From Patescibacteria group bacterium UBA6805 (GTDB taxonomy: Bacteria; Patescibacteriota; Minisyncoccia; Minisyncoccales; Minisyncoccaceae): DNA of 64,000 nt. The DNA lies in the NCBI GenBank assembly GCA_002452735.1, contig DKFD01000011.1, forward strand, positions 1 to 64,000, given 5' to 3'. The position numbers and the translations under genes were made by a program. The notes beneath the pieces were generated by a model, which saw only the letters and a program-made list of their open reading frames with translations, had not been told where the DNA came from and made no database searches. This document shows, piece by piece, positions 20,832-58,597 of the stretch; position 1 is the stretch's first letter; the number at the start of each line of letters is the position of its first letter.

Positions 20832-21297
20832 AAAAGAATTATCAGAATCCATAGAGGAGATAGTCAAGGATTTTTTCCGCCGAGCCGGTTCAGAGGCGGA
20901 GATTAAAAAGATATCTCTGGAAGAATCGGACGGCCGGGAAGTTTTAATGTTGAATTTGAAAACCAAAGAAGCCAACATTTTCATCGGCAAACAAGGACTG
21001 GTTTTGTCCGACATCCAACTTCTTTTGCGAAAGATGATAAAGAAAAAAACAGACAAGGATTTTTTCTTGAATCTGGACATAGATGATTACAAAAGATATA
21101 AAGAAGATTATTTGAGAGAAATGGCTCAGGGCGCCGCTGATGAAGCAATCGGCCAAAAAGAAAAAAAAGAGCTGCCCTTGGCTTCTGCTTTTGACAGGAG
21201 GATAGTGCACCTGGAGCTTTCAAAAAGAAAAGACGTTAAAGTGGAAAGCGAGGGAGAGGGAGAGGAAAGAAAAATAATAATTACGCCTTTGGACTAA
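20815..21297 (+). CDS. Jag/KhpB-like RNA-binding protein (KH + R3H)
   Basis: 160 aa; C-terminal R3H-like 'FDRRIVHLEL'; canonical position after yidC. Confidence 0.65.
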   Translation: MKNMNEKELSESIEEIVKDFFRRAGSEAEIKKISLEESDGREVLMLNLKTKEANIFIGKQGLVLSDIQLLLRKMIKKKTDKDFFLNLDIDDYKRYKEDYLREMAQGAADEAIGQKEKKELPLASAFDRRIVHLELSKRKDVKVESEGEGEERKIIITPLD

Positions 21298-23075: not shown

Positions 23076-23080
23076 ATTGT

Positions 23081-23722
23081 TTATGTTATAATTTCCGGCG
23101 GCAGTTCGGGATAATATCCCAATTCGGCCTGCTTCGGATGGTGCAAGCTCCACAAAAGCTCAATTAATTCTTCCGTCCCCAGGGGCACTGATTTCAAGCC
23201 GCATCTTCTCAGTCCCAAAGAAATATATTCCATTCTTTGCCAGAGCTGGTATTTTCCGGTCTGGAAGCCCTGCTCGGTCAGAGTGGAGCGGGTGGTTTGT
23301 TTCTTTCCCTCTCCCCCACTGGTCAGGCTCGGGAGCTCAACCAAAGGATAGTAAGGGACGACGATATAGAAATTTTTATTCATGATTGACCCGCCGGCCA
23401 CCAACTCTTCAACGAACCGTCTGTAATCAGAGGTTTGGATTTTCAAGAGTTCGTTTTTTTGCTCGTCTTCCAGTTTTTTGATTTTTTCCACATAGCCGGT
23501 GATGTTCACTTTCCTTGAGCTCACGATTATCTGGCAGGAGAAGTCTAAAGAATTCAAGAAGTTTTGAAAATTGAAAATGATGGCGCCCTGCTCTTCTTCC
23601 GATTTCAAGGCGAAATTAATTGAGGAAATAAGAAGAATCCCTTTTAATGATTTGTCTTTCATGATCATCACTCCTTCGCGGATTTGCTCAACCGGTATAA
23701 ATTGTTGGGAAGATATGGCCAT
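23081..23722 (-). CDS. VirB4-family N-terminal domain as a separate ORF (split gene, frameshift or genuinely bipartite)
   Basis: 213 aa; 'GILLISSINFALKSEEEQ' region resembles the N-terminus of Gram-positive-type VirB4 proteins; ends 5 nt before the ATPase ORF in a different frame; the combined length of about 806 aa is normal for VirB4. Confidence 0.55.
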   Translation of the reverse strand: MAISSQQFIPVEQIREGVMIMKDKSLKGILLISSINFALKSEEEQGAIIFNFQNFLNSLDFSCQIIVSSRKVNITGYVEKIKKLEDEQKNELLKIQTSDYRRFVEELVAGGSIMNKNFYIVVPYYPLVELPSLTSGGEGKKQTTRSTLTEQGFQTGKYQLWQRMEYISLGLRRCGLKSVPLGTEELIELLWSLHHPKQAELGYYPELPPEIIT

Positions 23723-24141
23723 TATTTTTCAAAAAATATTTTTTTACTTAAGGATTCGATTTTTCCACTCGGCCTGAGACTAAGCTTTGTTTTCTCTTCT
23801 TTTTTCGGCTCAACGGATTTTTTGGACGTTCTGGTGGGGAGAAAAACCGGCGATGCCTTTCTGTCCCACCTATATATCTTACTGCCTACGGTGAAGTTGA
23901 AGAAATTCTTGGAGACAACGGCGATTCCCAGTCCCTCGACTTTCAAAAAGGCCAGAGCCAGAGAAGAGCCGAAAAGCGCGCCGCAAACCAAGATGTATAA
24001 AAAAAAGTTTGATTTCCCCAGGGAAAAATACAGAAAAAAGCACAGTCCCAGAGCCATGCCGATATACACGCTCTGTTTTAAAGTAAAGGGACCCAGAATT
24101 TTAGGATCGTGCTCTATGAATTGGGGAACTTGAAACTGCAT
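23722..24141 (-). CDS. PrgI-like (VirB3-like) small two-TM T4SS protein
   Basis: 139 aa; 'MQFQVPQFIEHDPKILGPFTLKQSVYIGMALGLCFFLYF' matches the PrgI-family start pattern (VPQ...f.gLTlrQ) followed by two TM helices; located directly upstream of VirB4. Confidence 0.5.
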   Translation of the reverse strand: MQFQVPQFIEHDPKILGPFTLKQSVYIGMALGLCFFLYFSLGKSNFFLYILVCGALFGSSLALAFLKVEGLGIAVVSKNFFNFTVGSKIYRWDRKASPVFLPTRTSKKSVEPKKEEKTKLSLRPSGKIESLSKKIFFEK

Positions 24142-32921: not shown

Positions 32922-34247
32922 ATGAAGAAAAAAATATTATTTCTGTTCCTTCTGCTCTCTCTTGTTTTGGTTTCCAATGTTTATGCCTTGGAAGCGCAGT
33001 ATCCTGAAATTCTGGGTAAAACCATAACCGATGAAACCACGCCGGCTGGTTACGTGGTATATTTCTTCTATCTGGCCATGTCCTTGGGAAGCGTTCTGGT
33101 TTTCATAATCTTGGTCATGGCCGGAATTGATTTTATCACCGCAGGAGGAGAGCCGGCGAAAATAAGCGAAGGGAGAAAAAAGATAATCAGCGCCATTGTC
33201 GGCTTGATAGTTCTTTTCAGCTCTTTCCTGATTCTTAACAGTATCAATCCCGCCTTGCTGAAGATAGAGCTGGAAAAATTGGAATGTCCGGGAGGAATTT
33301 CAATCGTGAAGCAGAAAGCTGACGGGAAGAAAGTTGATGACTGCATAACCGGCAGCGTAAGCAACATCGAAGGAGACGTTATTGAGACAAAGGGATGGGT
33401 TTTTTCGGGTTGTCTCGTAAAAGAGGTCTATCTTTGCACTCAGCCGGGCTTCAAAGGAACCTGCACTAAAGTTTCTGACCCCAAAAGTCAGAATTTTACC
33501 TGCCAACCCAATTACCAGTTCACAAACGGTACCAGCTTAAGCGGAGTCAAATCAGTAAAATTCGTCTGGCGCTCACCCGGAGTATATTTGTACGACAACA
33601 TCAACTTTGAACCAAACGACCTCAGCAAAAGCCCGAAGCATCTCGGCAGCAACATTAAAAATATGAACGACGTCGGTTTTGACAATATGGCTCAATCATA
33701 CCAGTTAATTTTCCCGGAAACGGAAACAGCCGAAGAGATTCCGATATATTACGGTGCGGTTTTTTTTGACAGCTTCAATTATTCGGGCAAATGCAGTCTG
33801 GAAATAATGAACCAAAAGGACTTGGGAGTTCCCACTTCCATCGGAAGGAACACCTTGTCTTCGGCCATTGTTTTCACCCAAAAAGAGACCGATACCCTCA
33901 AGGATTTGGGCGACATTGTTTTGTACAATAACATAGATTGCGGACAAAGTACCAGCGAGGAAGTAAAGAAATGCTCCCTGAATATTTACAATTACATAAC
34001 AGTCGGAAAGATTAAAGACGATTGTCCCGAATTCGAGGACGGAGACTACGTGCTTTCTTTCAGCATCAACGGACCCGGAGGCATGATTTTAAAAGGAAGC
34101 CAGAACGCGCTTTGCGAATATTTTGATTCCAAGAGCATGGTTTCCGGCAGTTGTTATCCGAGCTTAAAAACCAAATCAACAATTTACGTCCAGGGGCCTG
34201 GAGGAACCAAGCCTGAGTCTTATATAATCTTCCCGGTGGACAATTAA
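32922..34247 (+). CDS. secreted VirB2/TrbC-like pilin domain fused to beta/gamma-crystallin-like repeats
   Basis: 441 aa; signal peptide, pilin-like helices '...VLVFIILVMAGIDFITAGGEPAKISEGRKKIISAIVGLIVLFSSFLILNSINP'; C-terminal repeats with Greek-key-like 'GVYLYDNINFEPND...SYQLIFPE' and 'AVFFDSFNYSGKCSLEI...LSSAIVF'. Confidence 0.6.
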   Translation: MKKKILFLFLLLSLVLVSNVYALEAQYPEILGKTITDETTPAGYVVYFFYLAMSLGSVLVFIILVMAGIDFITAGGEPAKISEGRKKIISAIVGLIVLFSSFLILNSINPALLKIELEKLECPGGISIVKQKADGKKVDDCITGSVSNIEGDVIETKGWVFSGCLVKEVYLCTQPGFKGTCTKVSDPKSQNFTCQPNYQFTNGTSLSGVKSVKFVWRSPGVYLYDNINFEPNDLSKSPKHLGSNIKNMNDVGFDNMAQSYQLIFPETETAEEIPIYYGAVFFDSFNYSGKCSLEIMNQKDLGVPTSIGRNTLSSAIVFTQKETDTLKDLGDIVLYNNIDCGQSTSEEVKKCSLNIYNYITVGKIKDDCPEFEDGDYVLSFSINGPGGMILKGSQNALCEYFDSKSMVSGSCYPSLKTKSTIYVQGPGGTKPESYIIFPVDN

Positions 34248-34252
34248 TAAAT

Positions 34253-35467
34253 ATGAAAAAACTATTTACAATAATTTTGGCCTTTTCCCCTGCCGTCGTT
34301 CTGGCCCAGTATCCGATTATCAGCGGAAGAGCCATAACCGACAAATCCACTTTTTCCGAATATGTTCTTTACTATTTCAGCTTGGCCCTGGTTGTCGGGA
34401 TTGTGGCCGCGGTTCTCGTCTTGATAACCGCCGGCATCAATTTTCTGATTTCCCGGGGGGATTTGTACAGAAGGAACAACGCCAAAAGAATGATAACCGG
34501 CGCTTTTGTCGGCTTGGTCGTTCTTTTCGGTTCTTTTGTAATTTTGAACGCATTAAATCCTTCATCTACGGGCTCGATTCTCGATCCGGAGCCGATTGTC
34601 GCTAACGGCATTTATCTAATCAAAGAAGACGGGGAAAAACTTTTAATCTACCAGAATATCGGCAACACCGAAAAGAATTTTAACGGCATAGAATGGATTT
34701 CCAGCCAGGAAGATTTACCGGCGATATACGTTTACGCCGATAAAGGCTTCAAGGGCGTGCCCGTTGAAATCAAGAACGGAGAATCTCTCCCCATTTCCCA
34801 GGGCTCTTCAATCGCCTTTTTATGGAAAACCGTCGGAGTTTATCTTTACGACAAGACGGATTACCAATTAAACGAAAAGAGCATTCCTTTGCCGGTCAAG
34901 TTCGACCAGCCGTCTCTGGGAAGCAGTTCTTTTGATAATATAGTGCAATCAATTAAGATAAATCAGCCCGAGGATGGTTCGGTTTTGGGCGTTGTTCTTT
35001 TTTCAGAGCCCGACTACAGGGGAACCTGCTCCTGGGTTTTGGGAGACATGCCAGATTTGAGTCAGACAAGGAGCGAAGAAAACAACCCGGCCTTGGGCAA
35101 CGGCATCCTTTCTTCTTTGATTGTTTTGAACACGGCTTCGGGCTCGCCTACGGCCACTTTTTACAATAGAGCCGATTGCCAGCATGTTGAACAAGACCCG
35201 AGAAGCAAGAAATGCAGCATCTCTGTGATAAATAAAACAGAAACCTTCAAGGAATCCTGCCCCGACTTTGAGGGAGATATTTTGTCTTTTGCCTTAAGCC
35301 AAGGGACAGCCGTACTTTTGAAAACGGAAAACGGCCAGTGCCAGTTTTTCAAAAGGCAAAAACCCCAAGAATGCGTCAGTTTGATTAAATACAGCTATAT
35401 TTACAGTCCCGACCCCGAAAAATCCCTTACGCCCTATTCTTTCACTATATTTTCTTTGGAGAAATAA
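34253..35467 (+). CDS. secreted VirB2/TrbC-like pilin domain fused to beta/gamma-crystallin-like repeats (paralogue of the preceding gene)
   Basis: 404 aa; same N-terminal architecture ('...VLITAGINFLISRGDLYRRNNAKRMITGAFVGLVVLFGSFVILNALNP'); 'GVYLYDKTDYQLNE...VQSIKINQPE', 'VVLFSEPDYRGTCSWVL...LSSLIVLN'. Confidence 0.6.
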   Translation: MKKLFTIILAFSPAVVLAQYPIISGRAITDKSTFSEYVLYYFSLALVVGIVAAVLVLITAGINFLISRGDLYRRNNAKRMITGAFVGLVVLFGSFVILNALNPSSTGSILDPEPIVANGIYLIKEDGEKLLIYQNIGNTEKNFNGIEWISSQEDLPAIYVYADKGFKGVPVEIKNGESLPISQGSSIAFLWKTVGVYLYDKTDYQLNEKSIPLPVKFDQPSLGSSSFDNIVQSIKINQPEDGSVLGVVLFSEPDYRGTCSWVLGDMPDLSQTRSEENNPALGNGILSSLIVLNTASGSPTATFYNRADCQHVEQDPRSKKCSISVINKTETFKESCPDFEGDILSFALSQGTAVLLKTENGQCQFFKRQKPQECVSLIKYSYIYSPDPEKSLTPYSFTIFSLEK

Positions 35468-41577: not shown

Positions 41578-41650
41578 GCCCCGTGAAGGACTCGAACCTA
41601 CAACCTTGAAGTTAAGAGCTTCCTGCTCTGCCAATTGAGCTAACGGGGCT
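41578..41650 (-). tRNA. tRNA-Lys (anticodon CTT)
   Basis: manual fold: acceptor GCCCCGT/ACGGGGC, D-arm GCTC..GAGC, anticodon loop CTCTTAA, T-loop TTCGAGT; one G-A at 27-43 and one T-T in the T-stem; no encoded CCA. Confidence 0.65.
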
Positions 41651-42042
41651 TAAGGATTTTTCTGGAAGAAGTAAAGGGGCCATTCCATCTGTCCCTTGGT
41701 TATGAAAGTTACGAATTCGTAAACGATAATCCAGGCGGAATAAATCAACAATATGCCGACGACGCCGTAAGTCAATATTTTTCTTCCCTGCTCCACTTTG
41801 CCCGGGTCGCCGCCGGCCGTCATGATGGTAATTCCGCCCCAGGCGAAGAAAAGAACGGCTAAAGGAGGAACCAGGTTGAAAAGGATGAAATTAACAACAT
41901 TGTTGATTAAAACAAAAAAGTCGCTAAAGGTGCAAGAATTCTGTCCTTCTCCGCCGCAGGGAACGAGTCCTTGTCCCAGAACCGGCGTGGCGAAAAACAA
42001 AAAAAGAGCGAAGAAAAGCAGATATTGTTTGATTTTTGACAT
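41650..42042 (-). CDS. short stand-alone VirB2/TrbC-like (T4SS-type) pilin
   Basis: 130 aa; signal peptide, then '...LAVLFFAWGGITIMTAGGDPGKVEQGRKILTYGVVGILLIYSAWII', the same two-helix plus basic-loop architecture as the N-termini of the three fusion proteins; its stop codon touches the tRNA-Lys 5' end. Confidence 0.55.
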   Translation of the reverse strand: MSKIKQYLLFFALFLFFATPVLGQGLVPCGGEGQNSCTFSDFFVLINNVVNFILFNLVPPLAVLFFAWGGITIMTAGGDPGKVEQGRKILTYGVVGILLIYSAWIIVYEFVTFITKGQMEWPLYFFQKNP

Positions 42043-42084: not shown

Positions 42085-42156
42085 TGCCCCCGGCAAGATT
42101 CGAACTCGCACCACTGGTTCCGAAGACCAGTACTCTATCCATTGAGCTACGGGGGC
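42085..42156 (-). tRNA. tRNA-Arg (anticodon TCG)
   Basis: manual fold: acceptor GCCCCCG/CGGGGGC, anticodon stem CTGGT/ACCAG with loop CTTCGGA, T-loop TTCGAAT; CC but no full CCA encoded. Confidence 0.7.
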
Positions 42157-42158
42157 AT

Positions 42159-42836
42159 TTAATCTTTTTTAAAGAGCTTTTTCAGGGACTTGATTCTGAA
42201 GGGAGGAACAGTATCCTGGTCAAAGATGAGCCGGTTTTCCATCAACTCGTTTCTTTTGTCCGATTCCAAAACTTCCTTAATGGGGCTCATCCTTTTTAAG
42301 AAAATGGGAATAAGGGAAAGAAGAATGAGATAGCCGATGGGCTCAAAATTTAATCCGCCCTTGAAAGTGATGAAAATGCCGGTAACCAGAGAAAGAATGG
42401 TGCCGACCGAAGCGGTCCAGATAATGGCGAAGACAATGGTGGGAACCAATATGATGATCAGGGTGGCGGGAGAAAACACCAGCATGGCTCCCATCAGGGC
42501 GCCCAATCCCCGGCCCCCCTTGAATCCCAGAAAAAGAGACCAATTGTGACCGATGACTGACATGACGCCGCAGAAAATCTGAACGGAAACAGGCAGGCCG
42601 TATTCTTTGGCCAGAAAGACCGCCAGGAAACCTTTACCAATATCCAGGGCGGCTGTCAATATTCCCTGCCATAAACCCACGTTTTTGGCCACGTTTGAGC
42701 CCGAGCTTTTTTTCCAGCCCATTTCAAGAATGTTTTTGCCGGAAGTAACCCTGGTGATTATATAGGCGAAAGGAATGGAGCCCAGGACATAGGCCAGGGC
42801 CATAAAAGCAAGACAAACAAGATATTGGTTAATCAT
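42159..42836 (-). CDS. plsY: PlsY-family glycerol-3-phosphate acyltransferase (paralogue 1)
   Basis: 225 aa; 'AYVLGSIPFAYIITRV', 'SSGSNVAKNVG', multi-TM; the family G-S-G-N-x-G-A-T-N motif is degenerate here. Confidence 0.65.
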   Translation of the reverse strand: MINQYLVCLAFMALAYVLGSIPFAYIITRVTSGKNILEMGWKKSSGSNVAKNVGLWQGILTAALDIGKGFLAVFLAKEYGLPVSVQIFCGVMSVIGHNWSLFLGFKGGRGLGALMGAMLVFSPATLIIILVPTIVFAIIWTASVGTILSLVTGIFITFKGGLNFEPIGYLILLSLIPIFLKRMSPIKEVLESDKRNELMENRLIFDQDTVPPFRIKSLKKLFKKD

Positions 42837-43500
42837 TTAAGTATGTTTTATTTTTTATTTTTTTAATCTGTTCGGACAGGCGGTCTTTATGGGCTATTAA
42901 AATCAAAGGAGTAGCGGCCAAAGCGGGATAGAACAATAATATATTATATGTATAAAGCCAGAAAAGAGCAAATACTTCTCCGCTTAATCTTCCCGTGATT
43001 TGGTCGGAAACGGCGTATTTCAGGAATTTTTTATTCACCTTTCTCCCCATTAATACTTCAAACAGAATCATAAAACAGACAACCAGAACGAGCCAGCCGA
43101 GGAAAGCCTTCCAATCAAGATAAAGCAATATGCCCAGGAAGCTGGCCGCTCCCCGTCCTCCTTTGAGCTTAAGGAAAACGGAATAATTGTGTCCCAAGAC
43201 CGCGAAGAAAGCAGCCAGAGAAACGGCCAGGGGGCTGTTTCCGGCAGTCATGGTTTGGGCCAGATAAACGGAAAGGACTGCTTTGCCGGCATCCAAAAGA
43301 AAAACAAGAAGAAAAGACAATATTCCCGCTATTCCTCCTTTTTCTTTGCTGGCGATTCTTAAAGTATTCAGGGCTCCGATATTTTTCGAACCCGATTCCC
43401 TCGGGTCCTTTTTAAAGAGAAGTTTATTGATAATCAGGCCGAAAGGAATAGAGCCCAGGACATAGGAGATTAAAGCGATAAGAATATATTTTTCCAGCAT
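42829..43500 (-). CDS. plsY: PlsY-family glycerol-3-phosphate acyltransferase (paralogue 2)
   Basis: 223 aa; 'SYVLGSIPFGLIINKL', 'SGSKNIGALNTLR'. Confidence 0.75.
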   Translation of the reverse strand: MLEKYILIALISYVLGSIPFGLIINKLLFKKDPRESGSKNIGALNTLRIASKEKGGIAGILSFLLVFLLDAGKAVLSVYLAQTMTAGNSPLAVSLAAFFAVLGHNYSVFLKLKGGRGAASFLGILLYLDWKAFLGWLVLVVCFMILFEVLMGRKVNKKFLKYAVSDQITGRLSGEVFALFWLYTYNILLFYPALAATPLILIAHKDRLSEQIKKIKNKTYLND

Positions 43501-43518: not shown

Positions 43519-44388
43519 TTAATCTTGCAACAAGCAAACGAGTACGGTGCCCGGGCCGACATGGGCGCCGATGACGAAGCTGGTCATGTTGACGAATTCC
43601 ATTTTCGTTCCCGGGAATTTGTCTTCTATCATTTTTTCCAACCGTATCGCTTCGTTGATATTGTCGGCATGGCTTATGGCCGCGTAATATTTTCCGGGTA
43701 TTTTTTTAATCAGGGCCCCTATTTCTTTGAACAGGGCGCCGGCCGTGTCTTTGGCCTGCATTTTCAAGGTAAACGGCTTGACAACGCCGTCCTTGATGCC
43801 CAAAACCGGTCTCATGCCCAGGCCCTGCATCTTTTCCAGGACTCCGGCCACGGCGCCGCTGATTCTTCCTCCGGCCTCCAGCCATCTGGGGTCTTCAACC
43901 ATTCCGAAAAGATGAACCTTTGGAACAAGTTCTTCTAAAACCTTGAAAGCGTTTTCCGCGCTGCTTCCCCGTTCAATCAATTCCGCGGCCCTGATGGCCA
44001 AAAGTCCCTCGCCAATATCAACGTTCAGGCTGTCCAGAACGAAGATTTTCTTTTGCGCTTCTTCGTTGAGCATTTTTTTAGCCTGCATGGCGGAGTTGTA
44101 GGTTCCGGATATTTTTGAACTGACGGTGATGCAAATGATATCTTGGTTTTGGGACAGAAGCTCGTCATAGGCTTTTTTATAAACTCCGATTGCCGGCTGG
44201 GACGTTTTGGGGGTGGTTTTCAGTCCTTGTCTCTGGGCATTTCTCATTTTTTCATAGATGTTTTCTCCCGAGATGGCGTTTTCGCCGCTCCAGTCAATTA
44301 TAAAAGGAACCGTTTTTATTCCATATTTTTGGATTATTTCCTGAGGCAGCGGTGCGCTTTCCCCGGCAATTATTGTTGTGTTTTTCAT
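43519..44388 (-). CDS. DegV-family fatty-acid-binding protein (FakB-like)
   Basis: 289 aa; DegV fold hallmarks 'CITVSSKISGTYNSA', 'FVLDSLNVDIGEGL'. Confidence 0.8.
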   Translation of the reverse strand: MKNTTIIAGESAPLPQEIIQKYGIKTVPFIIDWSGENAISGENIYEKMRNAQRQGLKTTPKTSQPAIGVYKKAYDELLSQNQDIICITVSSKISGTYNSAMQAKKMLNEEAQKKIFVLDSLNVDIGEGLLAIRAAELIERGSSAENAFKVLEELVPKVHLFGMVEDPRWLEAGGRISGAVAGVLEKMQGLGMRPVLGIKDGVVKPFTLKMQAKDTAGALFKEIGALIKKIPGKYYAAISHADNINEAIRLEKMIEDKFPGTKMEFVNMTSFVIGAHVGPGTVLVCLLQD

Positions 44389-44403: not shown

Positions 44404-45264
44404 TTAATGCCAGCCGAGAACCAAAGTTCCCGGGCCGAGATGTCCGCCCAGAGGAATGCAGACAGGGCTTAAAAAGGCCGTGTCCACGTTTATCCCCGAA
44501 AGCAACGCCTTCAGTTTATTGGCTTGTTCTTCGTTGTTGGCGTGGGTGATGCTGGCCGTTATTTTTTTGCCGGACTCCCTGACTTTTCTCGTGCTTTTTT
44601 CAAACTCTTCAAACAGGGCCTGGGACAGGTTTTTAATATTCATTTTTATCCCGACAATGGTCAGTTTTCCGTCTTTGAATCCAAATATGGGTTTGAGGTG
44701 CATTCTTTCCGCGCCCCTCTGAACAAAGCGGGGTATCCGTCCGCTGGCTTCAAGCCATTTGCCATCCTGATAAGCGCCCAGCAGCTTGAAGTTCTTTAAG
44801 TCGGCGTTTAATCTGTCCACTATTTCCTGCGCGTTCAATCCTTGTTTTATGTGCTTTATGGCCTCAAGGACGATAAGGCCTTCTCCTGCGCTGCCGTTAA
44901 GCGTATCCAAAACATGAACCCGGCTTCTCATTTCCGCACTTAAGAATTTCTGGGCCTGGGTGGCCGAATTATACGTTCCGGAAATCTTGGAAGAGATGGT
45001 AAAGCACAATAATTCTTTAAAGTGTTTCAGTTTTTCCTCGAAAACCCTGGCGAAATCGTTTATTGAGGGCTGGGAGGTTTTGACAAAACCGATTATCCCC
45101 TGTTTATCCGACTGCACCATTTTTTCATAAATGGTTCCCGGGAATTGCGCCAATTGCTGCAAGTCGATTTTGAACCGGACAAGGGAAATGTCGTTTTCTT
45201 TTATTATTTCTTCGGGCACATCGACTGCTTCGTCAGCGACAATGCCTATTTGTTTTTCTTCCAT
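44404..45264 (-). CDS. DegV-family fatty-acid-binding protein (FakB-like, second copy)
   Basis: 286 aa; 'CFTISSKISGTYNSA', 'HVLDTLNGSAGEGL'. Confidence 0.8.
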   Translation of the reverse strand: MEEKQIGIVADEAVDVPEEIIKENDISLVRFKIDLQQLAQFPGTIYEKMVQSDKQGIIGFVKTSQPSINDFARVFEEKLKHFKELLCFTISSKISGTYNSATQAQKFLSAEMRSRVHVLDTLNGSAGEGLIVLEAIKHIKQGLNAQEIVDRLNADLKNFKLLGAYQDGKWLEASGRIPRFVQRGAERMHLKPIFGFKDGKLTIVGIKMNIKNLSQALFEEFEKSTRKVRESGKKITASITHANNEEQANKLKALLSGINVDTAFLSPVCIPLGGHLGPGTLVLGWH

Positions 45265-45268
45265 TTTT

Positions 45269-47056
45269 TTATTTCACTATCCAGCCCGCAATCAAGCTTT
45301 CTGGGCAAGCATTGATGCTGGTCACCGGATCGGTGATGGTTACAAAAGAGATATCCGCTCTTTTGAATTTTTTAAGGCTGCTCTTGAGCTGTTCGGCCTG
45401 CTCCGGGTTGTCGCCGTGAGCGATAACAGCTCTGATTCTTTTTCCTCTTTTAATGTCTTTACTGGTGTGGCGGTCTATTTTTTTAAAGAGAATGTCGGCG
45501 AAATCCCTGGTCTTCACTTTTCCTCCGGGCGTCATTTTTCCGTCCTTCATCTGGGTTAAAAGAAACTCCTGGTTGTCTTTTTTTCTGAACCAGCGGCCGC
45601 TGAAAGAGTCTTTTTTCCACCAGCGGACGTTTTCCAAAACAGCGTAAACGTTGACCGTAGGCACGATGTTTTCCAGTCTTGATTTTATCTCCCCGAAGTC
45701 CCGGTGCTCTTTTATCAGTTCAATCGCTTCCAGGATTAACAGTGATTGTCCGGCGCTGATGTTTTTGGAATCAATCACCAAAACCTTCTCCCGTTCTTCC
45801 GGCAGCAGTAAGCCCTTTGCCTTAAGGGCGGAGCGGTAATTGTCCGAAAGCTTTGAGCTGGAAACGATGCATAAAACATGCTCGAAATCCCTTAATTGAT
45901 TTTTGTAGGCCTCAAGGAAAAAGTCGGGAGCAATCGATTCTATTTTTGGCTTTTGGGTCAGTCCCTGCTTCTTGGCTTCTTTGATTTTTTCGCAAATCGT
46001 GTTGCCGGCCAGGCTTTCCCCTCCGGGCCAACTGATTTTGAAGGGAACAACCTCAATGTTATAGTGATTGATTATTTTTGAAGTCAGGCCGGCTCTTTCA
46101 TCAACAACCAGGCCGATGGACACGCTCTCAATGGATTTTTCTCCAACAACCTCTCTGGCCATGTCTTGAATCTTAAGGTTTTCAATGTCCCCCAATTCTT
46201 TTACCGAGTCCCTTACTTCGTAAGGACTGTCAGTGTGAATGTGTATTTTGGTCCTGTCCCCTATCTGAATAATATCCAGACAGTCGCCCAAGTGTTTGAG
46301 CCTGTCTTTGATTTTTTTATCGGTCTCTTCAACGTTTTTTATCAAGGCCACCACCTCATAGCGGTTGGAGATTATTTGAATGAATCTTCTGGGCCTTGTT
46401 TTTTCTCTTTCCGAAGCGAATTCTTTGGGCGAAGAAAGGTCCCCCTGTTCTTTTAAAATGTCCAGATATGTTTCCAATATCATCAAAAAACCGAGGCCGC
46501 CCGCATCGACTACCCCGGCCTTTTTCAATAATTCCATTTTATTCGGGGTTTCTTTCAACGCTTCGTCGGCTTTTTCCAGGGATTTATAGAAGATTTTTAC
46601 AATGTCTTTTTCATTCTTTGATTCTTCCTCAAAAGTCAGGGCAAAGGCCTCAATAACATCCAAAATTGTTCCCTCCCTGGGATTCTGGATGGAATCTTTC
46701 GCTCTTTCCATGCCTTTGTTGAAAGCCGTGGCCATCTCTTCGGCGTTAACGGATTTTTCTTTGCCCAAAGCGGGGAAAAAACCGGCCAAGAAACCGGTAT
46801 AAATAATGCCGGCATTGCCCTGGGCGCCGGTCAAAGCTCCCTCCAAAACGCTGTTGGACAATTCTTCAATGGAGGAGAAATCTTTTTCTTCTATCTGTTC
46901 TTTAATGCCTTTGAGCGTGGCACTTAAGTTGTTGCCCGTGTCCTGGTCGGGCACGGGAAAAACGTTAATTTTGTTTATTTGTTCTTTGTCTCTCTCTATC
47001 CTTTCACAGGAAAAGAGTATCATTTTTTTCAGTTCGTTTTGGGTTACTTCTTGCAT
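45269..47056 (-). CDS. fakA: fatty acid kinase FakA-like (Dak2/DhaL N-domain + DegV-like C-domain)
   Basis: 595 aa; Dak2 motif 'PDQDTGNNLSATLKG', C-terminal DegV-like 'CIVSSSKLSDNYRSA'. Confidence 0.7.
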   Translation of the reverse strand: MQEVTQNELKKMILFSCERIERDKEQINKINVFPVPDQDTGNNLSATLKGIKEQIEEKDFSSIEELSNSVLEGALTGAQGNAGIIYTGFLAGFFPALGKEKSVNAEEMATAFNKGMERAKDSIQNPREGTILDVIEAFALTFEEESKNEKDIVKIFYKSLEKADEALKETPNKMELLKKAGVVDAGGLGFLMILETYLDILKEQGDLSSPKEFASEREKTRPRRFIQIISNRYEVVALIKNVEETDKKIKDRLKHLGDCLDIIQIGDRTKIHIHTDSPYEVRDSVKELGDIENLKIQDMAREVVGEKSIESVSIGLVVDERAGLTSKIINHYNIEVVPFKISWPGGESLAGNTICEKIKEAKKQGLTQKPKIESIAPDFFLEAYKNQLRDFEHVLCIVSSSKLSDNYRSALKAKGLLLPEEREKVLVIDSKNISAGQSLLILEAIELIKEHRDFGEIKSRLENIVPTVNVYAVLENVRWWKKDSFSGRWFRKKDNQEFLLTQMKDGKMTPGGKVKTRDFADILFKKIDRHTSKDIKRGKRIRAVIAHGDNPEQAEQLKSSLKKFKRADISFVTITDPVTSINACPESLIAGWIVK

Positions 47057-47096: not shown

Positions 47097-47747
47097 TTAT
47101 TTTATCTTTTTCTCCAAGCCGTCAAGGATTTTTTTGGCAAAATCTTTTCCTCCCAGACCGAAAGCCAGGCCAAAGACCAAGACAATGAAGGTCACGAATC
47201 CGATGAATATGGTCAAAATCAAATCAGGCACTATTTTTAACTGGTAAAGAATGGCCAGGCCGGCCAGAATCCAGGCCACTGAAGAAATAATGTCGCCCAA
47301 GATGCTCGAATATGCTATTTTCTCGTTTTCCAGACTGACCACCAGTATTTTTTTGGAAAAATCGGCTAAAAATACGGCAAAAATGAAGATGATTATGGCG
47401 ACAAAAATGTTGGGGAAATAATCAATGATTTTTTGGATAAAAGCGTTAAACTGCTCCAGTCCTATAATATCGAAAGAAATGGTCAGGAAAAGAAGCAGGA
47501 AGAATATGTTGACCAATTCGCTAAAGAATCCGGAAACGTTGATTTGGGCGTTGCGACGGGTGAAAAATTCTTCCCAACCCAATGATTTCAGCATCTGGTT
47601 CAGGCGGAATTTTTTTAAAAATTCATCTGCATATTCCTTAATTTTGTTTGCGACAAATACCCCGATAAAGAAAACTAAAAAAGCCCAAATCAGATTTGGC
47701 AGGTTAAGGATTACGTTTTCCATAAACACATTTAATATGTCCTGCAT
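47097..47747 (-). CDS. hypothetical polytopic membrane protein
   Basis: 216 aa; 4-5 TM helices, no catalytic motifs recognised. Confidence 0.35.
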   Translation of the reverse strand: MQDILNVFMENVILNLPNLIWAFLVFFIGVFVANKIKEYADEFLKKFRLNQMLKSLGWEEFFTRRNAQINVSGFFSELVNIFFLLLFLTISFDIIGLEQFNAFIQKIIDYFPNIFVAIIIFIFAVFLADFSKKILVVSLENEKIAYSSILGDIISSVAWILAGLAILYQLKIVPDLILTIFIGFVTFIVLVFGLAFGLGGKDFAKKILDGLEKKIK

Positions 47748-47782: not shown

Positions 47783-48343
47783 CTACCATTTGGCATTGTG
47801 CAAGCCCAAATTATACCCAATTCGGTTGAATAAAATATGAGTAAAAAATGTCAAGACAAAAAGCCAAAACCAGAACTTAATTTCAAGATGAAACAAGGGC
47901 TGAAGAATTATAAAGCTGCCTATCACATAGTTTGTCTGGTCAAAAGGAATGAATTTTGCACCGGACTTGAGTTTTAGTCGTCTTTTAATAAAAGCAAAGG
48001 ACAAATCACCAAAAACAATGCCAATTGATAGTAAAAATCCCAATATAAAGCCGTTTATTTGGTTATATGCATAAAAACCAATAGTTTCATAGTGCGTAAG
48101 GCCGAGAAAATTATGTACCCAGATGAATGCAGGCATTAACGAGGTGCAGACAATGATTTCAGAAATAACGCCTCGCCAGGTTTTATGGTCTCCAAGCACG
48201 GGATCGTTGTTCAATTTCGCTCCCCCGTCAACCGGACCTGCCAGTCCTTTAAGTATTTTTATTTTGTACGCCAAAGGTGGCGAAGCATTGGCAAAGTATG
48301 CCGGTCCAAAGAAAAACATGCAGGATAATAGATAATAAAACAT
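47783..48343 (-). CDS. CarS-like (DUF46) CDP-alcohol/CDP-archaeol synthase-family CTP-transferase
   Basis: 186 aa; 'GPVDGGAKLNNDPVLGDHKTWRG' matches the P-x-D-x-G...G-x-x-KTW-R-G signature of the CarS/DUF46 family; multi-TM. Confidence 0.5.
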   Translation of the reverse strand: MFYYLLSCMFFFGPAYFANASPPLAYKIKILKGLAGPVDGGAKLNNDPVLGDHKTWRGVISEIIVCTSLMPAFIWVHNFLGLTHYETIGFYAYNQINGFILGFLLSIGIVFGDLSFAFIKRRLKLKSGAKFIPFDQTNYVIGSFIILQPLFHLEIKFWFWLFVLTFFTHILFNRIGYNLGLHNAKW

Positions 48344-48347
48344 TGTT

Positions 48348-48947
48348 TTATTTTATTATTCTGGACTCAGTGCCCTGCCGCAGCCTTTTGATATTTTCTC
48401 TGTGCGTCCACCATATTAATAATATATAGACAAAAGCAAGAACAACATAAGCAGAAGATTTTGTTTCTATCCAGAACAATATGGGCAGAAACAAGGCAAT
48501 GATTAAATTGGTTAAACTCATTATTTTTATAACAAACAAGGAAAGAGCCCAAATAGTTAGGAATATCAAAGAGTAATTTAGTCCTAAAATCATGAAAATC
48601 GTGGCAGCCACGGTAGCCACGCCTTTTCCTCCCTTAAACTTGAGCCAAATCGGGAATATATGGCCAAGCACGGGAGAAATGGATACCAAGGCCATTTGCC
48701 AGTCCTGGGTTAGATAGTGGCCAGCCACATATATTGGTATAATGGCTTTAAGTATATCAAGAACACTGACCAGAGTCCCGTATTTGAAGCCAAGGGTTCT
48801 GCCAACGTTTGTTCCGCCAATATTGCCACTCCCCTGTTTTCTGATGTCGATTTTTTTAAGCTTGGCAATCAAATAGCCAAAAGGTATTGAGCCTGATAAA
48901 TATCCTATAATAACGAAGAAGATTAATAAAATTGTTTGATTTTCCAT
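48348..48947 (-). CDS. plsY: PlsY-family glycerol-3-phosphate acyltransferase (paralogue 3, most canonical)
   Basis: 199 aa; 'GYLSGSIPFGYLIAKL', 'GSGNIGGTNVGR'. Confidence 0.8.
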   Translation of the reverse strand: MENQTILLIFFVIIGYLSGSIPFGYLIAKLKKIDIRKQGSGNIGGTNVGRTLGFKYGTLVSVLDILKAIIPIYVAGHYLTQDWQMALVSISPVLGHIFPIWLKFKGGKGVATVAATIFMILGLNYSLIFLTIWALSLFVIKIMSLTNLIIALFLPILFWIETKSSAYVVLAFVYILLIWWTHRENIKRLRQGTESRIIK

Positions 48948-48971: not shown

Positions 48972-49042
48972 TGGGCTTGATGAGAGTCGAACTCATATTG
49001 CTACTGTGTGAAAGTAGTATTCTGCCGCTGAATTACAAGCCC
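48972..49042 (-). tRNA. tRNA-Val (anticodon CAC)
   Basis: manual fold: acceptor GGGCTTG/CAAGCCC, D-stem ATTC/GAAT, anticodon stem CTACT/AGTAG with loop TTCACAC, T-stem ATGAG/CTCAT; no CCA. Confidence 0.7.
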
Positions 49043-49047
49043 AGGGT

Positions 49048-49061
49048 GTTTCACGTGAAAC
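49048..49061. promoter_or_regulatory. 14-bp perfect palindrome GTTTCACGTGAAAC 5 nt upstream of the tRNA-Val 5' end (copy 1)
   Basis: identical element with identical flanks (CCCAGG..TGTTTCACGTGAAACTTT) precedes tRNA-Ala at 49302-49315. Confidence 0.4.
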
Positions 49062-49146
49062 TTTTGTCGGGATGCTGGGAATTGAACCCAGATGACAGAC
49101 TCCCGAAGCCTGCATAATGCCGTTATATTACATCCCGAAATTATTT

Positions 49147-49222
49147 GGCCGGATTCGTGTCCGGATTCGTGTCCGCATTGGCCGGATTCGTGTCCGCATT
49201 CGGATTCCGGCCAATGCGGACA
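49147..49222. repeat. GC-rich composite repeat: three direct GGATTCGTGTCCG(CATT) units plus inverted repeat GTCCGCATTGGCCGG/CCGGCCAATGCGGAC in the tRNA-Ala/tRNA-Val spacer
   Basis: seen in sequence; strongly GC-shifted relative to its surroundings; can form a 15-bp stem. Confidence 0.6.
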
Positions 49223-49226
49223 TTTG

Positions 49227-49297
49227 TGGACCTGACGAGAATCGAACTCATATCTCTACTATGCGAAAGTAGTGTTCTGCCATTAAACTACAGGCCC
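49227..49297 (-). tRNA. tRNA-Ala (anticodon CGC)
   Basis: manual fold: acceptor GGGCCTG/CAGGTCC with G3:U70 alanine identity pair, anticodon stem CTACT/AGTAG with loop TTCGCAT, T-loop TTCGATT; no CCA. Confidence 0.7.
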
Positions 49298-54190: not shown

Positions 54191-57100
54191 ATGGAAAACA
54201 AAATTTTCAAAACAATATTTTTTCTTTCAATAATATCAATGATTTTTATTGGAGGAGATGTTTGGGCAGATACTTGTAATGTGTGGACGTCTAAAACTAG
54301 TATGTCTATTAGTAGGGGTCACATGGGTTCGGCAGTAGTTAACAATAAAATTTATGTAATAAGTGGTTATTTAGGCAACTATGTAAGAACAAACAAAGTT
54401 GAAGAATATGACCCAGCCACTAACACATGGACAACTAAGGCCGACATACCTACAGCTAGAGAAATGTTTGGGGCCGCAGCTGTAAACAATAAAATTTATG
54501 CAATTGGAGGAGGAACTCCAAACACAACAGGTATAGTTGAAGAATATGACCCAGCCACTAACACATGGACAACCAAGGCTAACATGCCTACAGATAGAGC
54601 TGATTTTGGTATTGCAACTGTAAATAATAAGATTTATGTAATTGGAGGGATAAGAAATGACGGTGGCGCTGGTAATAAAGTTGAAGAATATGACCCAGCC
54701 ACTAACACATGGACAACCAAGGCCAACATGCCTACTGCAAGAGTGTCTCTTACTGCCGCAGCTGTAAACAATAAAATTTATGCAATTGGAGGGATAAGTG
54801 ATGGTGGCTACACAGATCTAAAAATAGTTGAAGAATATGACCCAGCCACTAACACATGGACAACTAAGGCTAACATGCCTACTGCAAGGAGTTATCTTAG
54901 TTCAAACTCACCAGCTATCAATGGTAAAATTTATGTCATTGGAGGGACTTCTGGAGGATCTTCTACAAACAAAGTTGAAGAATATGACCCAGCCACTAAC
55001 ACATGGACAACTAAGGCTAATATGATTACAGGTAGAGTTGGTCTTGTTACGGATGCAGTAAACAATAAAATTTATGCGATAGGTGGTTATGATAATAGTT
55101 CTTATGTATCAATTAATGAAGAATATGCTCCTTGTAACAACGGTTCTTGTGGAACAGCTAACGGTCACGGGTACTATTCAACATCATATATTGATACTTC
55201 TTCTGAAAGATGTTATGCAGGAACATTTGGCGGTTCGTTTGTCGACAATGGTTCTTCTTGGGGCTGGAGTTGTATAGGAACTGATGGTGGGACAACAGCA
55301 TCTTGTAGTGCCAATAAAGTTTTGGCAGGAAACTCAAACGGTCAGACACTGAAAAATCCACCGATAAACAACCTCTGCATGTATGGAGAACCGACGACAC
55401 CGATACTGACTGAAGATGTTTGGTATTGGTTTTGTAGAGATAATCCTGGAGTAGACGCAGTCGGTTACACATATAAAACCGCTTGTGGCTATTCTGACGG
55501 AGGAAGCTCATCTTATCCTCCCGAGACAGATCTTTGCAAGCATGGAGAACCCTCTTCAGTGATAACGGGCGAAACATATACATGGACCTGTACTGGGAAT
55601 GATTCCCTTTCGGTTAGTTGTTCTACAGACATTAATAGTAAATGCGGAACAGCTGATAGACATGGATACTCGGCGACTTCATACATAGATCTTAGTGAAG
55701 AAAGATGTCAGTCAGGATCAGCATTCGGCGGTGTATTTATCGACAGCGGTTCTTTTTGGAATTGGACCTGTGGCGTTAGTTCTTCGTCTTGGACGATAAA
55801 TGCATCTATGCCGGTTAGCGGTGAAGATATTAGGCCTCACACGGCGGTTATCAATGGAAAAATTTATATCATCAAAACATCGGCCCCTAGTGTTCATGAA
55901 TATAATCCAAGTACTAATACTTGGGTAGCAAAGGCCAGCATGCCCACTGCGAGAGAGGATCTTTCTAAGGCGTCTAAGGCGATAGTTATTAATAACAAAA
56001 TATATGTATTAGGAGGAAGGATTTTAGGTGTTAATTTAAAAAACAATGAAATGTATGATCCGGCTACTAATACTTGGACGATAAAAGCGCAAATGCCCAC
56101 AACTGCTTATGAATCGGGCATAGTAGCTGTTAATGGAAAAATATATCTAATCGGTATGAATGGTGCTTCTAGAACAGTCTATGAATATAATCCAAATACC
56201 GACACATGGACAAACAAAGGATCAGCCATTCCCAACGAAAGGACTGCTAATACTGGAGGGATGACAGCGGTTGTCGATGGCAAAATTTATGTCATTGGAG
56301 GTAATTCTACGGGTTCTACTGACGAATACGATCTAGTCACTAACACCTGGACGACCAAAGCCAATATGGTTTTTCCGATACAAGATGGAGTAGTAGCGGT
56401 CGTCGATAAAAAAATATATATTCTGGGGGGCAGAGATATGGACTGGATACCCAAAATGTGGAACCAACAATACGATCCGACCACTAACACATGGAATAGT
56501 TTAGCTAATGTCCCTTATAATACATCCAATGTGGTCCCCGGATTGGCTGTTCTCGACAACAAAATATATCTGATGGGACTTAGTGGTAGTTCTACTACAA
56601 GAAATTTTTATGAATTCAATCCAATCACTAATATTTGGTATTATAAAACACCAATGAACTTCGAAAAAGAACGTTTTGGGGTAGCGGTCGTCGACAATGT
56701 AATTTATACCATCGGGGGATGGAATCGCAACGAAAACGAATCATACGGGTTTTCGAGTACCTGCTTTGCCAACAAGGTTGCGACTGGAAATGCTGACGGT
56801 CAAATACTGAAAAACGAGCCTTTAGTCGATCTTTGCGAATACGGAGAAACAACAACACCGATCCTGGCTGACGATGTTTGGAATTGGACCTGTACCAATA
56901 ATCCCGGAGTGGACGCATTCGGCCTTGCTTATAAAACAACTTGTGGTTCTTCCCATGGAGGATTTTCTTCAGAGCCACCAACTGATTTATGTAAACACGG
57001 AACGCCTTCTGAGGTTATAGATAATCCTTTAACCTATGATTGGACCTGTATGGGAGATGATTCATTGGCAGTTACTTGTCAGGCTCCAAAAGAGTTTTCT

Positions 57101-58597
57101 TGCGGTAATAATTTTATAGATTCTCGTGATAGTCAAACATATTCTACTGTTCAAATAGGAGACCAATGCTGGATGAAAGAGAATTTAAATTATACAACAG
57201 GAAATAGTTGGTGTTATGATGATAATCCTGCTAATTGTGATATTTACGGAAGATTATACAATGCAAGCACCGCTCAAACTGCTTGTCCTTCGGGGTGGTA
57301 TTTGCCAAGCGACGCCGAGTTTGGTGTTTTATTTAGTTTTGCTAGTCAGAGCATGAATAAGCTTCGAGCTTCCCCTCCTGCTTGGGACGGACAAGACAGT
57401 TATGGATTTAATGTACTTCCCTCTGGAGGGCGAGTTAGTGGCGCATACGAGCATCTTGGTTCGATGAGTGGTTTTTGGGATTCTGGTACGGTATTAGGAT
57501 ATCATATTGTCAAGCAGTTTTTTTCAGGCATGGATGTGGCGATTGCATACGCAGGAGAACCTTACGAGCCCAATGGTTATGCGGTTCGATGCCTTAAAGG
57601 TCCTGTTGATGGCGCTTGCGGTGCCAGCCAGGGCGGACTTTCGTCCACTCCTCCCGAGGCAGGTCTTTGCAGCGCCGGCAATCCTTCTTTTGTGACAACC
57701 AATGCCACGACATATACCTGGACCTGTAACAGTCCCGGAGGCGGGAGCGATGCTAATTGTTCGTCCAATAGGATATCATTCAACAATCCTTATGACATTA
57801 ACAGCGATGAATCGTGCTGGTTCTGCGAATATTACTATGACACGGGTGGAATCCTGAGAGAAGGAAAACTAAACAACGGCATAGCGGATTTGGAATTTAA
57901 GTTTACCACCAACGCTTCCGATTACAACTCTTATAAATTTGCCATAGGTACAATTAATGACGTGAGCCAGGCAATGCAAACCGACGGATGGCTTTCCGTT
58001 TCTTCTTCTGAAACATTATTCAGCGGAGCAAAAGTAAGAAGGTCGGGAGCAGACCAGAAAGAGGGGAGCAACGGTTTCTTGCTTACTTATACCAAGACAT
58101 ACTATTGGTGGGTGAAATTAAGGAAGCCGGACTTGACGGAAACAGAATGGATGGCGGGAGGAACATTAATCACTCCCGAGAAAGCGTTCCCGATAGTAAG
58201 GATAGCGGCCGACAAGGCAATCGTGACCGTGGGAACGAACATTCAGTATTGTGCCAACGCAGAGGGTGATTGCGCCCCGGTCTGCTGGACCGGAACGGGT
58301 GCCCCAGTGGTTGACCCTGATAATTATAACTGGCATTGCAGTGTTTGCTTTAATTCAAGCAATCAGCCCGTGGCTTGTACTAGCGGAAACGCATCTTTCT
58401 CATGGGTTTTGCCTACGGACAGCGGTGCCTACATGAATTCAACAACCGAACTAAGCGCCAATCCGGTATTCAGATTCAACCAGGTAATCCAGACATTTAA
58501 ACCGGGATTGGCCATAACAGGGTCCGAGTGCGCCGCCGAGGGAGAAACAGGAACAAAGGCGCCGTTGCCCAAATGGAGGGAGGTTTCACCGTTTTAA
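54191..58597 (+). CDS. giant secreted Kelch beta-propeller / FISUMP-domain protein
   Basis: 1468 aa; signal peptide; five near-identical Kelch blades 'NKIYxIGG...VEEYDPATNTWTTKANMPTAR' followed by a second, diverged propeller; two copies of an approximately 105-aa Cys module ('CxANKV..G..G..LKN.P...LC.YGE.TTPIL..DVW.W.C..NPGVDA.G..YKT.CG.S.GG.SS.PP.DLCKHG.PS.V.....Y.WTC.G.DSL.V.C'); a Fibrobacter-succinogenes-paralogous (FISUMP, TIGR02145-like) domain 'DSRDSQTYSTVQIGDQCWMKENLNY...CYDDNPANCDIYGRLYN...CPSGWYLPSD'. Confidence 0.7.
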   Translation: MENKIFKTIFFLSIISMIFIGGDVWADTCNVWTSKTSMSISRGHMGSAVVNNKIYVISGYLGNYVRTNKVEEYDPATNTWTTKADIPTAREMFGAAAVNNKIYAIGGGTPNTTGIVEEYDPATNTWTTKANMPTDRADFGIATVNNKIYVIGGIRNDGGAGNKVEEYDPATNTWTTKANMPTARVSLTAAAVNNKIYAIGGISDGGYTDLKIVEEYDPATNTWTTKANMPTARSYLSSNSPAINGKIYVIGGTSGGSSTNKVEEYDPATNTWTTKANMITGRVGLVTDAVNNKIYAIGGYDNSSYVSINEEYAPCNNGSCGTANGHGYYSTSYIDTSSERCYAGTFGGSFVDNGSSWGWSCIGTDGGTTASCSANKVLAGNSNGQTLKNPPINNLCMYGEPTTPILTEDVWYWFCRDNPGVDAVGYTYKTACGYSDGGSSSYPPETDLCKHGEPSSVITGETYTWTCTGNDSLSVSCSTDINSKCGTADRHGYSATSYIDLSEERCQSGSAFGGVFIDSGSFWNWTCGVSSSSWTINASMPVSGEDIRPHTAVINGKIYIIKTSAPSVHEYNPSTNTWVAKASMPTAREDLSKASKAIVINNKIYVLGGRILGVNLKNNEMYDPATNTWTIKAQMPTTAYESGIVAVNGKIYLIGMNGASRTVYEYNPNTDTWTNKGSAIPNERTANTGGMTAVVDGKIYVIGGNSTGSTDEYDLVTNTWTTKANMVFPIQDGVVAVVDKKIYILGGRDMDWIPKMWNQQYDPTTNTWNSLANVPYNTSNVVPGLAVLDNKIYLMGLSGSSTTRNFYEFNPITNIWYYKTPMNFEKERFGVAVVDNVIYTIGGWNRNENESYGFSSTCFANKVATGNADGQILKNEPLVDLCEYGETTTPILADDVWNWTCTNNPGVDAFGLAYKTTCGSSHGGFSSEPPTDLCKHGTPSEVIDNPLTYDWTCMGDDSLAVTCQAPKEFSCGNNFIDSRDSQTYSTVQIGDQCWMKENLNYTTGNSWCYDDNPANCDIYGRLYNASTAQTACPSGWYLPSDAEFGVLFSFASQSMNKLRASPPAWDGQDSYGFNVLPSGGRVSGAYEHLGSMSGFWDSGTVLGYHIVKQFFSGMDVAIAYAGEPYEPNGYAVRCLKGPVDGACGASQGGLSSTPPEAGLCSAGNPSFVTTNATTYTWTCNSPGGGSDANCSSNRISFNNPYDINSDESCWFCEYYYDTGGILREGKLNNGIADLEFKFTTNASDYNSYKFAIGTINDVSQAMQTDGWLSVSSSETLFSGAKVRRSGADQKEGSNGFLLTYTKTYYWWVKLRKPDLTETEWMAGGTLITPEKAFPIVRIAADKAIVTVGTNIQYCANAEGDCAPVCWTGTGAPVVDPDNYNWHCSVCFNSSNQPVACTSGNASFSWVLPTDSGAYMNSTTELSANPVFRFNQVIQTFKPGLAITGSECAAEGETGTKAPLPKWREVSPF
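54390..55120 (+). repeat. about five tandem DNA-level repeats (period about 145 bp) sharing a near-identical 50-60-nt core GTTGAAGAATATGACCCAGCCACTAACACATGGACAAC(T/C)AAGGC inside the Kelch gene
   Basis: cores at about 54399, 54536, 54683, 54827 and 54976. Confidence 0.8.

Follow-up and report, generated by a model that had tools for sequence, protein, structure and literature searches.

In textbooks, CarS and CdsA mark the 'lipid divide' between archaea and bacteria. On the archaeal side, the CDP-archaeol synthase of A. fulgidus (AfCarS) was reportedly characterised by Jain et al. in 2014. The two enzymes have been described as discriminating between two lipid types (PMC9385802), and in the CdsA of T. 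maritima (TmCdsA) D219 and D249 coordinate Mg2+, and D249 also approaches a K+ ion (PMC4083444). Here we describe a CarS-like gene found in a bacterium of the candidate phyla radiation (CPR), Patescibacteria group bacterium UBA6805, within the first 64,000 nucleotides (64 kb) of contig DKFD01000011.1 (hereafter the window). The gene (47783..48343, (-) strand) encodes a five-helix membrane CTP-transferase of the PF01864 family. We consider it fairly probable that this enzyme is a CTP:phosphatidate cytidylyltransferase acting on acyl lipids, that is, a functional stand-in for CdsA and not a CDP-archaeol synthase.

The open reading frame (ORF), whose end coordinate includes the stop codon, comprises 186 codons counted from an ATG start. 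An alternative public gene call for the identical sequence (P0001) begins at M9 and has 178 amino acids; the 186-residue version is the better model because the residues preceding M9 are conserved in 40 homologues. All close homologues come from Paceibacteria/Parcubacteria metagenome-assembled genomes (MAGs), which form the Paceibacteria clade referred to below. From the motif of the N-terminal cytoplasmic loop, P37-G58 (PVDGG...LGDHKTWRG, in full PVDGGAKLNNDPVLGDHKTWRG; residues 37-58, 48170..48235 (-)), the original prediction had placed the protein in the former DUF46 family and not with bacterial CdsA, and this membership turned out to be far beyond chance. In fact, Pfam PF01864 (CarS-like, formerly DUF46) matched with 90.9 bits (E=1.3e-25, gathering cutoff 22) over residues 4-186, which correspond to profile positions 4-175 of 175 and therefore to its full length, whereas the CdsA family model PF01148 reached 30.7 bits in a partial match confined to residues 53-133. 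The NCBIfam CarS equivalog NF003114 (EC 2.7.7.67) scored 108.8 bits, which falls short of its curated cutoff of 148; it matched 40/40 aligned clade members, and no other lipid enzyme model did.

Structural comparison gave the same assignment. In sequence searches against the PDB, CarS of A. pernix (ApCarS, 5GUF) was the sole match both for the protein alone (E 1e-4) and for a 40-sequence profile (E 6e-11). An alignment-based AlphaFold2 model (mean predicted local distance difference test 91.8, predicted template-modelling score 0.88) showed five long helices, and Foldseek retrieved 5GUF first (TM 0.68/0.79), in agreement with the fold of ApCarS with its five transmembrane (TM) helices, T. maritima CdsA being a distant second (E 1.3, TM 0.39). 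Within the superfamily of membrane CTP-transferases, the protein has the CarS fold and does not belong to CdsA.

The gene takes second place in a tightly packed run of eight co-directional genes on the (-) strand, with tRNA genes (Rfam RF00005) on both sides: three upstream (48972..49297 (-)) and one downstream (42085-42156). Its placement among Fak and PlsY genes, as originally predicted, held in full. Directly upstream lies plsY, encoding the acyl-phosphate:glycerol-3-phosphate acyltransferase (48348..48947 (-); PF02660 171.9 bits; TIGR00023 178.8, above the cutoff of 137.2), with 4 nt between its stop codon and the start of the CarS-like gene. Downstream follow a gene for a 216-amino-acid membrane protein with MscS-type TM-helix repeats (47097..47747 (-); PF05552), here called Msc-like, and a gene for FakA, with Dak2 and FakA middle domains, fused to a DegV/FakB-type domain (45269..47056 (-); PF02734, PF21645, PF02645). 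TIGR00762 (121 bits, cutoff 99.7) identifies the C-terminal half of this FakA as a genuine fatty-acid-binding domain of the DegV/FakB type, which makes the gene an apparent fusion of kinase and binding protein. Two further genes encode fatty-acid-binding proteins of the DegV/FakB family (44404..45264 (-), PF02645 151 bits, TIGR00762 169.7 bits; and 43519..44388 (-), PF02645 184 bits, TIGR00762 207 bits), and the cluster ends with two divergent PlsY paralogues overlapping by 8 nt (42829..43500 (-), PF02660 118 bits, TIGR00023 96; and 42159..42836 (-), PF02660 106 bits, TIGR00023 100.9), both below the TIGR00023 cutoff of 137.2. The cluster thus holds three PlsY copies, and the one at 48348-48947 alone passes the PlsY equivalog cutoff. 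A scan for promoters and terminators inside the cluster detected nothing above shuffled expectation, and its GC content (0.37-0.47) is the same as that of the remaining window. This gene linkage, like the family, the fold and the conserved catalytic residues, is observed directly.

The Msc-like protein possesses two stretches of the MscS-type 'conserved TM helix' (PF05552) without the cytoplasmic domain of MscS, and comparison with the PDB yielded weak similarity only, to the TM region of MscS. It could be a physical partner of the CarS-like protein or a conduit for lipids or fatty acids.

The cluster suggests a route from host fatty acids to phospholipids. The DegV/FakB proteins would bind host-derived fatty acids, FakA would phosphorylate them to acyl-phosphate and PlsY would move the acyl group to glycerol-3-phosphate. 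PlsC, or possibly the divergent PlsY paralogues, would carry out the second acylation; the 64-kb window contains no PlsC, and that the divergent copies perform this step from acyl-phosphate is speculative. The CarS-like enzyme would then put CMP from CTP onto phosphatidate to give a CDP-diacylglycerol-type liponucleotide, from which a CDP-alcohol phosphatidyltransferase (CAPT) and, subsequently, a phosphatase would produce the final phospholipid. We infer in this way the substrate and the product of the enzyme as well as its being the only one of its kind in the genome; a search for a canonical cdsA, run within the window, found none.

To see how general this arrangement is, we examined 77 Paceibacteria loci (the window for this genome, +/-10 kb around the homologue in the others), with the Pfam identities of the neighbours confirmed. 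The Msc-like gene was found at position +1 in 59/77 loci and is the most tightly linked neighbour, ahead of FakA (at +2 in 54/77) and PlsY (at -1 in 38/77). At least one of Fak, PlsY and DegV occurred within five genes in 61/77 loci. More divergent Paceibacteria have a second arrangement, in which a CAPT (PF01066) and a PHP-family phosphatase are divergently transcribed from the CarS-like gene (CAPT in 16 loci, PHP in 22, at -1 in 20 of them), accompanied by a HAD hydrolase, thiolase and sometimes UppS. A query with E. coli PgsA, one of several single E. coli proteins searched against 1.31 Mb of Paceibacteria DNA as controls, also detected homologues in 16 loci, and the E. coli CdsA query recovered from the same DNA the CarS-like ORFs alone and no canonical cdsA.

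The CAPT and PHP pair is exemplified by locus L055 (8586-9985), and about 15 loci are similar (e.g., L043, L049, L051, L059 and L066). It looks like a head-group transferase with its phosphatase, comparable to the synthase and phosphatase of phosphatidylglycerol phosphate or phosphatidylinositol phosphate. Downstream of FakA, islands of this second type carry thiolase-like (PF22691), DUF359-like and Zn-ribbon plus DUF362 genes (L055 12963-15698 and 14 other loci), and a short-chain dehydrogenase/reductase judged by eye to be similar to FabG is present at 10 of them. To our knowledge, the Paceibacteria of these loci have no fatty-acid synthesis.

Linkage to CDP-lipid genes extends to homologues outside Paceibacteria. 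A Saccharibacteria-type homologue (L089 7096-9169) sits between a gene of the diacylglycerol kinase family (PF00781) and a CAPT, and another one (L086 7435-9151) has the order CAPT-CarS-like-CAPT; both loci give the impression of compact modules for CDP-lipids in further CPR or bacterial lineages. In Dojkabacteria, a CAPT lies three genes upstream of the homologue, and the order in another bacterial homologue is CAPT-methyltransferase-CarS-like. The CDP-activation role within the lipid island, suggested by the original prediction, gains support from both the conserved synteny with PlsY and Fak and the CAPT linkage in relatives.

We inspected the active site by aligning the protein with E. coli CdsA using hhalign and by motif spacing, the metal ligands of ApCarS being inferred from TmCdsA and conservation. 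HKTWRG aligned to GKTWQG, and GDLSFAFIKRR to GDLTESMFKRE. The catalytic motif G112-N138 (GDLSFAFIKRRLKLKSGAKFIPFDQTN; 47930..48010 (-)) contains D113, A117, K120, D135 and N138, equivalent to TmCdsA D219, S223, K226, D246 and D249, respectively. Compared with CdsA, the loop after KRR lacks five residues (IPFDQTN vs IPGHGGILDRID in E. coli), and that of ApCarS is likewise short. Nine residues, D39, G51, K54, G58, D113, K120, R121, D135 and Q136, are identical throughout 186 clade sequences, and the first four are near-invariant in the wider family. With respect to the family-wide motifs GD-x3-S-x2-KR and D-Q-x-D, the protein deviates by having Ala for Ser and Asn for the second Asp, all remaining residues being present. 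Both changes are typical of the clade: position 117 is Ala in 182/186 clade sequences vs Ser in 145/149 other family representatives, and position 138 is Asn in 183/186 vs Asp in 135/149.

The exceptions within the clade are L058, L075 and L076, which keep Ser and Asp (S/D), and L056, which has Ser and Asn (S/N). Since the basal orthologues keep S/D and L056 has S/N, the replacement of D by N took place inside a single orthologous lineage. Outside the clade, the nearest relative (P0121) has S/N and a more distant one (P0124) Ala and Asn, and the ApCarS-like sequences recovered by an ApCarS-seeded search have Ala at 117 and keep DQLD. From these alignments, we read the metal site as a fixed, selected remodelling in one orthologous lineage and not as decay. 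The A117/N138 swap would likely alter metal affinity or K+ dependence. As a driver of a change of function it was down-weighted, given that the basal orthologues keep S/D and that ApCarS-like sequences also have Ala.

Asn is able to ligate Mg2+. This general chemistry bears on the suspicion that the protein is a catalytically impaired relic or a membrane partner without enzymatic activity that would, for instance, serve as scaffold for PlsY or for the Msc-like protein. Such a suspicion is raised by mutagenesis of TmCdsA, where D249A causes a 98.2% activity loss and S223C nearly abolishes activity (PMC4083444), the equivalent residues being here N138 and A117. Nevertheless, eukaryotic CDS enzymes have Gly in place of the D219 ligand and are still active (PMC4083444), and the Ala at 117 is shared with the ApCarS-like sequences. 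Moreover, the rest of the active site is extremely conserved among clade sequences that are 44-100% identical overall, and the presence of N138 in 183/186 of them is the pattern of a selected, working site. We consider a relic or a mere scaffold very improbable.

An enzyme that works, yet on a different lipid, is another possibility. It might use CTP on lyso-phosphatidic acid, to make CDP-monoacylglycerol, or on a polyprenyl substrate as a kinase or activator comparable to the dolichol/phytol kinase branch, which belongs to the same superfamily. The control query with E. coli PlsC found homologues in 4/80 loci; since PlsC is this rare and PlsY is present in up to three copies, lyso-phosphatidic acid could be an available substrate. 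Likewise, UppS, the next gene downstream in L038 and L042 and no more than five genes away in 7 loci, would suit a polyprenyl substrate, and the altered metal site could mean a changed chemistry or substrate. However, adjacent uppS and cdsA genes, as in E. coli, are the normal bacterial arrangement, so that the UppS linkage fits a CdsA-like role equally well. CAPT linkage is expected for a producer of CDP-lipids but not for a kinase, all remaining core residues of the cytidylyltransferase are invariant, and the clade contains orthologues with the canonical S/D. A different lipid substrate appears, on balance, unlikely.

The distribution of the family bears on a third alternative, namely that the protein is a true CDP-archaeol synthase acting on isoprenoid ether lipids (digeranylgeranylglyceryl phosphate (DGGGP)/archaetidic acid), self-made or obtained from archaeal hosts, and that these bacteria have archaeal-type or mixed membranes. 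Archaeal CarS is indeed the closest characterised family and fold, and 'CDP-archaeol synthase' is the label that NCBI and JGI already give to the family in hundreds of Paceibacteria MAGs. Relatives with the peptide patterns of the clade are encoded in at least 551 GTDB species (scan of one genome per species). The carriers include the cultivated archaeal parasite Minisyncoccus archaeiphilus (complete genome; L024), Ca. Microsyncoccus archaeolyticus (L007) and Nealsonbacteria (L051 and L077). The alternative is attractive because several of these carriers parasitize methanogenic archaea, but gene context lends it no support and, among the 551 or more carrier species, archaeal hosts are documented for few lineages. 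Thiolase and UppS genes close to the CarS-like gene in some loci would also fit it, and one Parcubacteria genome has been reported with GGGPS and DGGGPS homologues (preprint 10.1101/448035). Against it, Pfam searches found no GGGPS, UbiA-type or G1P (glycerol-1-phosphate)-dehydrogenase genes in the 64-kb window, and none was apparent among the recurrent neighbour clusters of the 77 loci, where sequences were judged by reading and not by an HMM (hidden Markov model) scan. Instead, the gene is packed co-directionally with plsY, fakA and degV, which are fatty-acid and glycerol-3-phosphate genes, the Saccharibacteria-type homologue adjoins a diacylglycerol kinase, and the NF003114 score lies under the equivalog cutoff.

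Phylogeny points in the same direction. A library clustered at 50% identity contains a single representative of the entire Paceibacteria clade, whose next relatives are <=39% identical; the search of this library gave 1246 clusters at E<1e-3 and 412 at E<1e-10. A profile search from distant representatives produced named matches in Saccharibacteria, Dojkabacteria and Microsaccharimonas, which indicates that PF01864 proteins are widespread in CPR bacteria. As archaeal anchor we used P0212, because it is surrounded by archaeal genes for ribosomal proteins and RNA polymerase. Neighbour joining with bootstrapping placed Paceibacteria and P0121 in one clade in 87/100 replicates and ApCarS with P0212; archaeal anchors are few in this tree and its deep nodes lack resolution, since the search seeded with an ApCarS fragment gave mostly truncated proteins. 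An archaeal anchor fell into the parent clade of the Paceibacteria group in 0/100 bootstrap replicates. This, together with a cluster GC content matching that of the window, gives no sign of recent transfer from archaea, a scenario that we rejected as unsupported. A genuine CDP-archaeol synthase seems to us distinctly improbable.

Several points weigh against a cytidylyltransferase of acyl lipids, the reading that we favour. The main one is biochemical: archaeal CarS has a strong preference for DGGGP as compared with phosphatidic acid, and AfCarS fails to complement an E. coli cdsA mutant (review PMC9385802), so that activity on acyl phosphatidic acid requires assuming a shift in specificity. 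In addition, the Asp equivalent to TmCdsA D249 is Asn (N138) and the Ser equivalent to S223 is Ala (A117), position assignments that rest on the motif register and the TmCdsA data. Finally, thiolase (15 loci) and UppS (7 loci) in the vicinity leave room for an isoprenoid-linked substrate.

The finding of the gene in CPR bacteria is not new, as the family is already recognised there by NCBI and JGI. All checks proposed with the original prediction spoke for it, the one for cdsA within the 64-kb window. The original prediction was right that a CarS-like gene is present but it was no first sighting; and, of the archaeal-type lipid enzyme that it held to be notable in CPR bacteria, the archaeal-type family and fold stood, whereas the archaeal lipid did not, with no sign of isoprenoid ether lipids nearby and an NF003114 score of 108.8 vs 148. 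Full-text literature searches found no paper discussing CarS-type genes in CPR, Patescibacteria or Parcubacteria; Coleman et al. 2019 do not treat CarS, and the Minisyncoccus papers and the Southlakia genetics preprint contain nothing on the CDP-activation step. Three aspects seem to be unaddressed in the searched literature: the occurrence of a CarS-type, and not CdsA-type, enzyme in acyl-lipid operons of a whole bacterial radiation, the label 'CDP-archaeol synthase', which is probably wrong for this enzyme, and the metal-ligand Asp-to-Asn swap in the Paceibacteria clade.

A CarS-fold enzyme inside a bacterial fatty-acid-salvage operon, an arrangement shared by at least 551 Paceibacteria species, would close a gap in how organisms reliant on host lipids build their membranes. 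If it makes CDP-diacylglycerol, a large block of bacterial 'CDP-archaeol synthase' annotations is misleading, CDP-activation in a major bacterial radiation is done by the 'archaeal' enzyme branch, and the clade, with its Asp-to-Asn swap, is a natural experiment on lipid specificity and metal use. A bolder idea, to which we give little credence, is that Paceibacteria parasites activate isoprenoid ether lipids of their archaeal hosts, alone or together with acyl lipids, and assemble membranes of mixed archaeal and bacterial composition, which would make the enzyme a natural bridge over the 'lipid divide'. More likely than such mixed membranes is a weaker version, in which the whole CPR superphylum may lack CdsA and make CDP-diacylglycerol with a CarS-type enzyme; the division between CarS and CdsA would then not coincide with the boundary between archaea and bacteria. 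The cultivated Minisyncoccus archaeiphilus makes the hypothesis testable.

The window contains other features related to the biology of these cells. It probably includes the region of the chromosomal replication origin, since dnaA (18084-19445 (-)) and dnaN (16722-17861 (-)) are adjacent. Type IV secretion-like parts (a TraG/VirB4-like ATPase, a PrgI-like protein and several T4SS-pilin-domain proteins) are encoded at 21294-24141 (-), 32922-35467 (+) and 41650-42042 (-), and a PilB-like T2SSE ATPase at 9175-10479; these components are possibly the host-interaction machinery of an episymbiont. A 1468-amino-acid protein (54191-58597 (+)) with around ten Kelch repeats and a Fibrobacter 'Fib_succ_major' domain is probably a large surface protein.

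Compared with the PF01864 proteins of other CPR bacteria (Saccharibacteria, Dojkabacteria, Microsaccharimonas), which are annotated as 'CDP-archaeol synthase' or 'hypothetical protein', the window protein belongs to the same family, has the same size and is also bacterial and, in its relatives, CAPT-linked. Those proteins differ in keeping the canonical Ser and Asp, both without variation across the 44 sequences of alignment A2, in being <=39% identical to it and in lacking the PlsY/Msc-like/FakA arrangement. With archaeal CarS (EC 2.7.7.67; PF01864; 5GUF) it shares the Pfam family over the full length, a size of ~180 amino acids, the spacing of 15 residues from KRR to DQxD without a PGHGG insert, and the core residues D39, K54-T55, G58, D113, K120, R121, D135 and Q136. 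Unlike CarS, it occurs in a bacterial host, scores below the NCBIfam equivalog cutoff, has Asn as the second Asp of DQxD and Ala as the Ser of GDxxxS, and is set in an operon for acyl lipids made from fatty acids and glycerol-3-phosphate and not among ether-lipid genes; its predicted substrate is acyl phosphatidate instead of DGGGP.

Compared with bacterial CdsA (EC 2.7.7.41; PF01148; T. maritima 4Q2E/4Q2G), the window protein is ~100 residues shorter (E. coli CdsA has 285 amino acids and the TmCdsA chain ~262), consists of five helices without the N-terminal or dimerisation domains of CdsA, has IPFDQTN instead of the PGHGG loop and the D-R-x-D signature, and matches the CdsA Pfam model partially (30.7 bits). 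Both belong, nonetheless, to the same superfamily and have in common the motifs KTW-x-G and GD-x3-(S)-x2-KR and the predicted type of reaction, in which CMP is moved from CTP onto a lipid phosphate. The pathway neighbours of the CarS-like gene, PlsY, PlsC, PgsA-type CAPT and UppS, are likewise those of CdsA in ordinary bacteria and provide the same context of acylated glycerol-3-phosphate.

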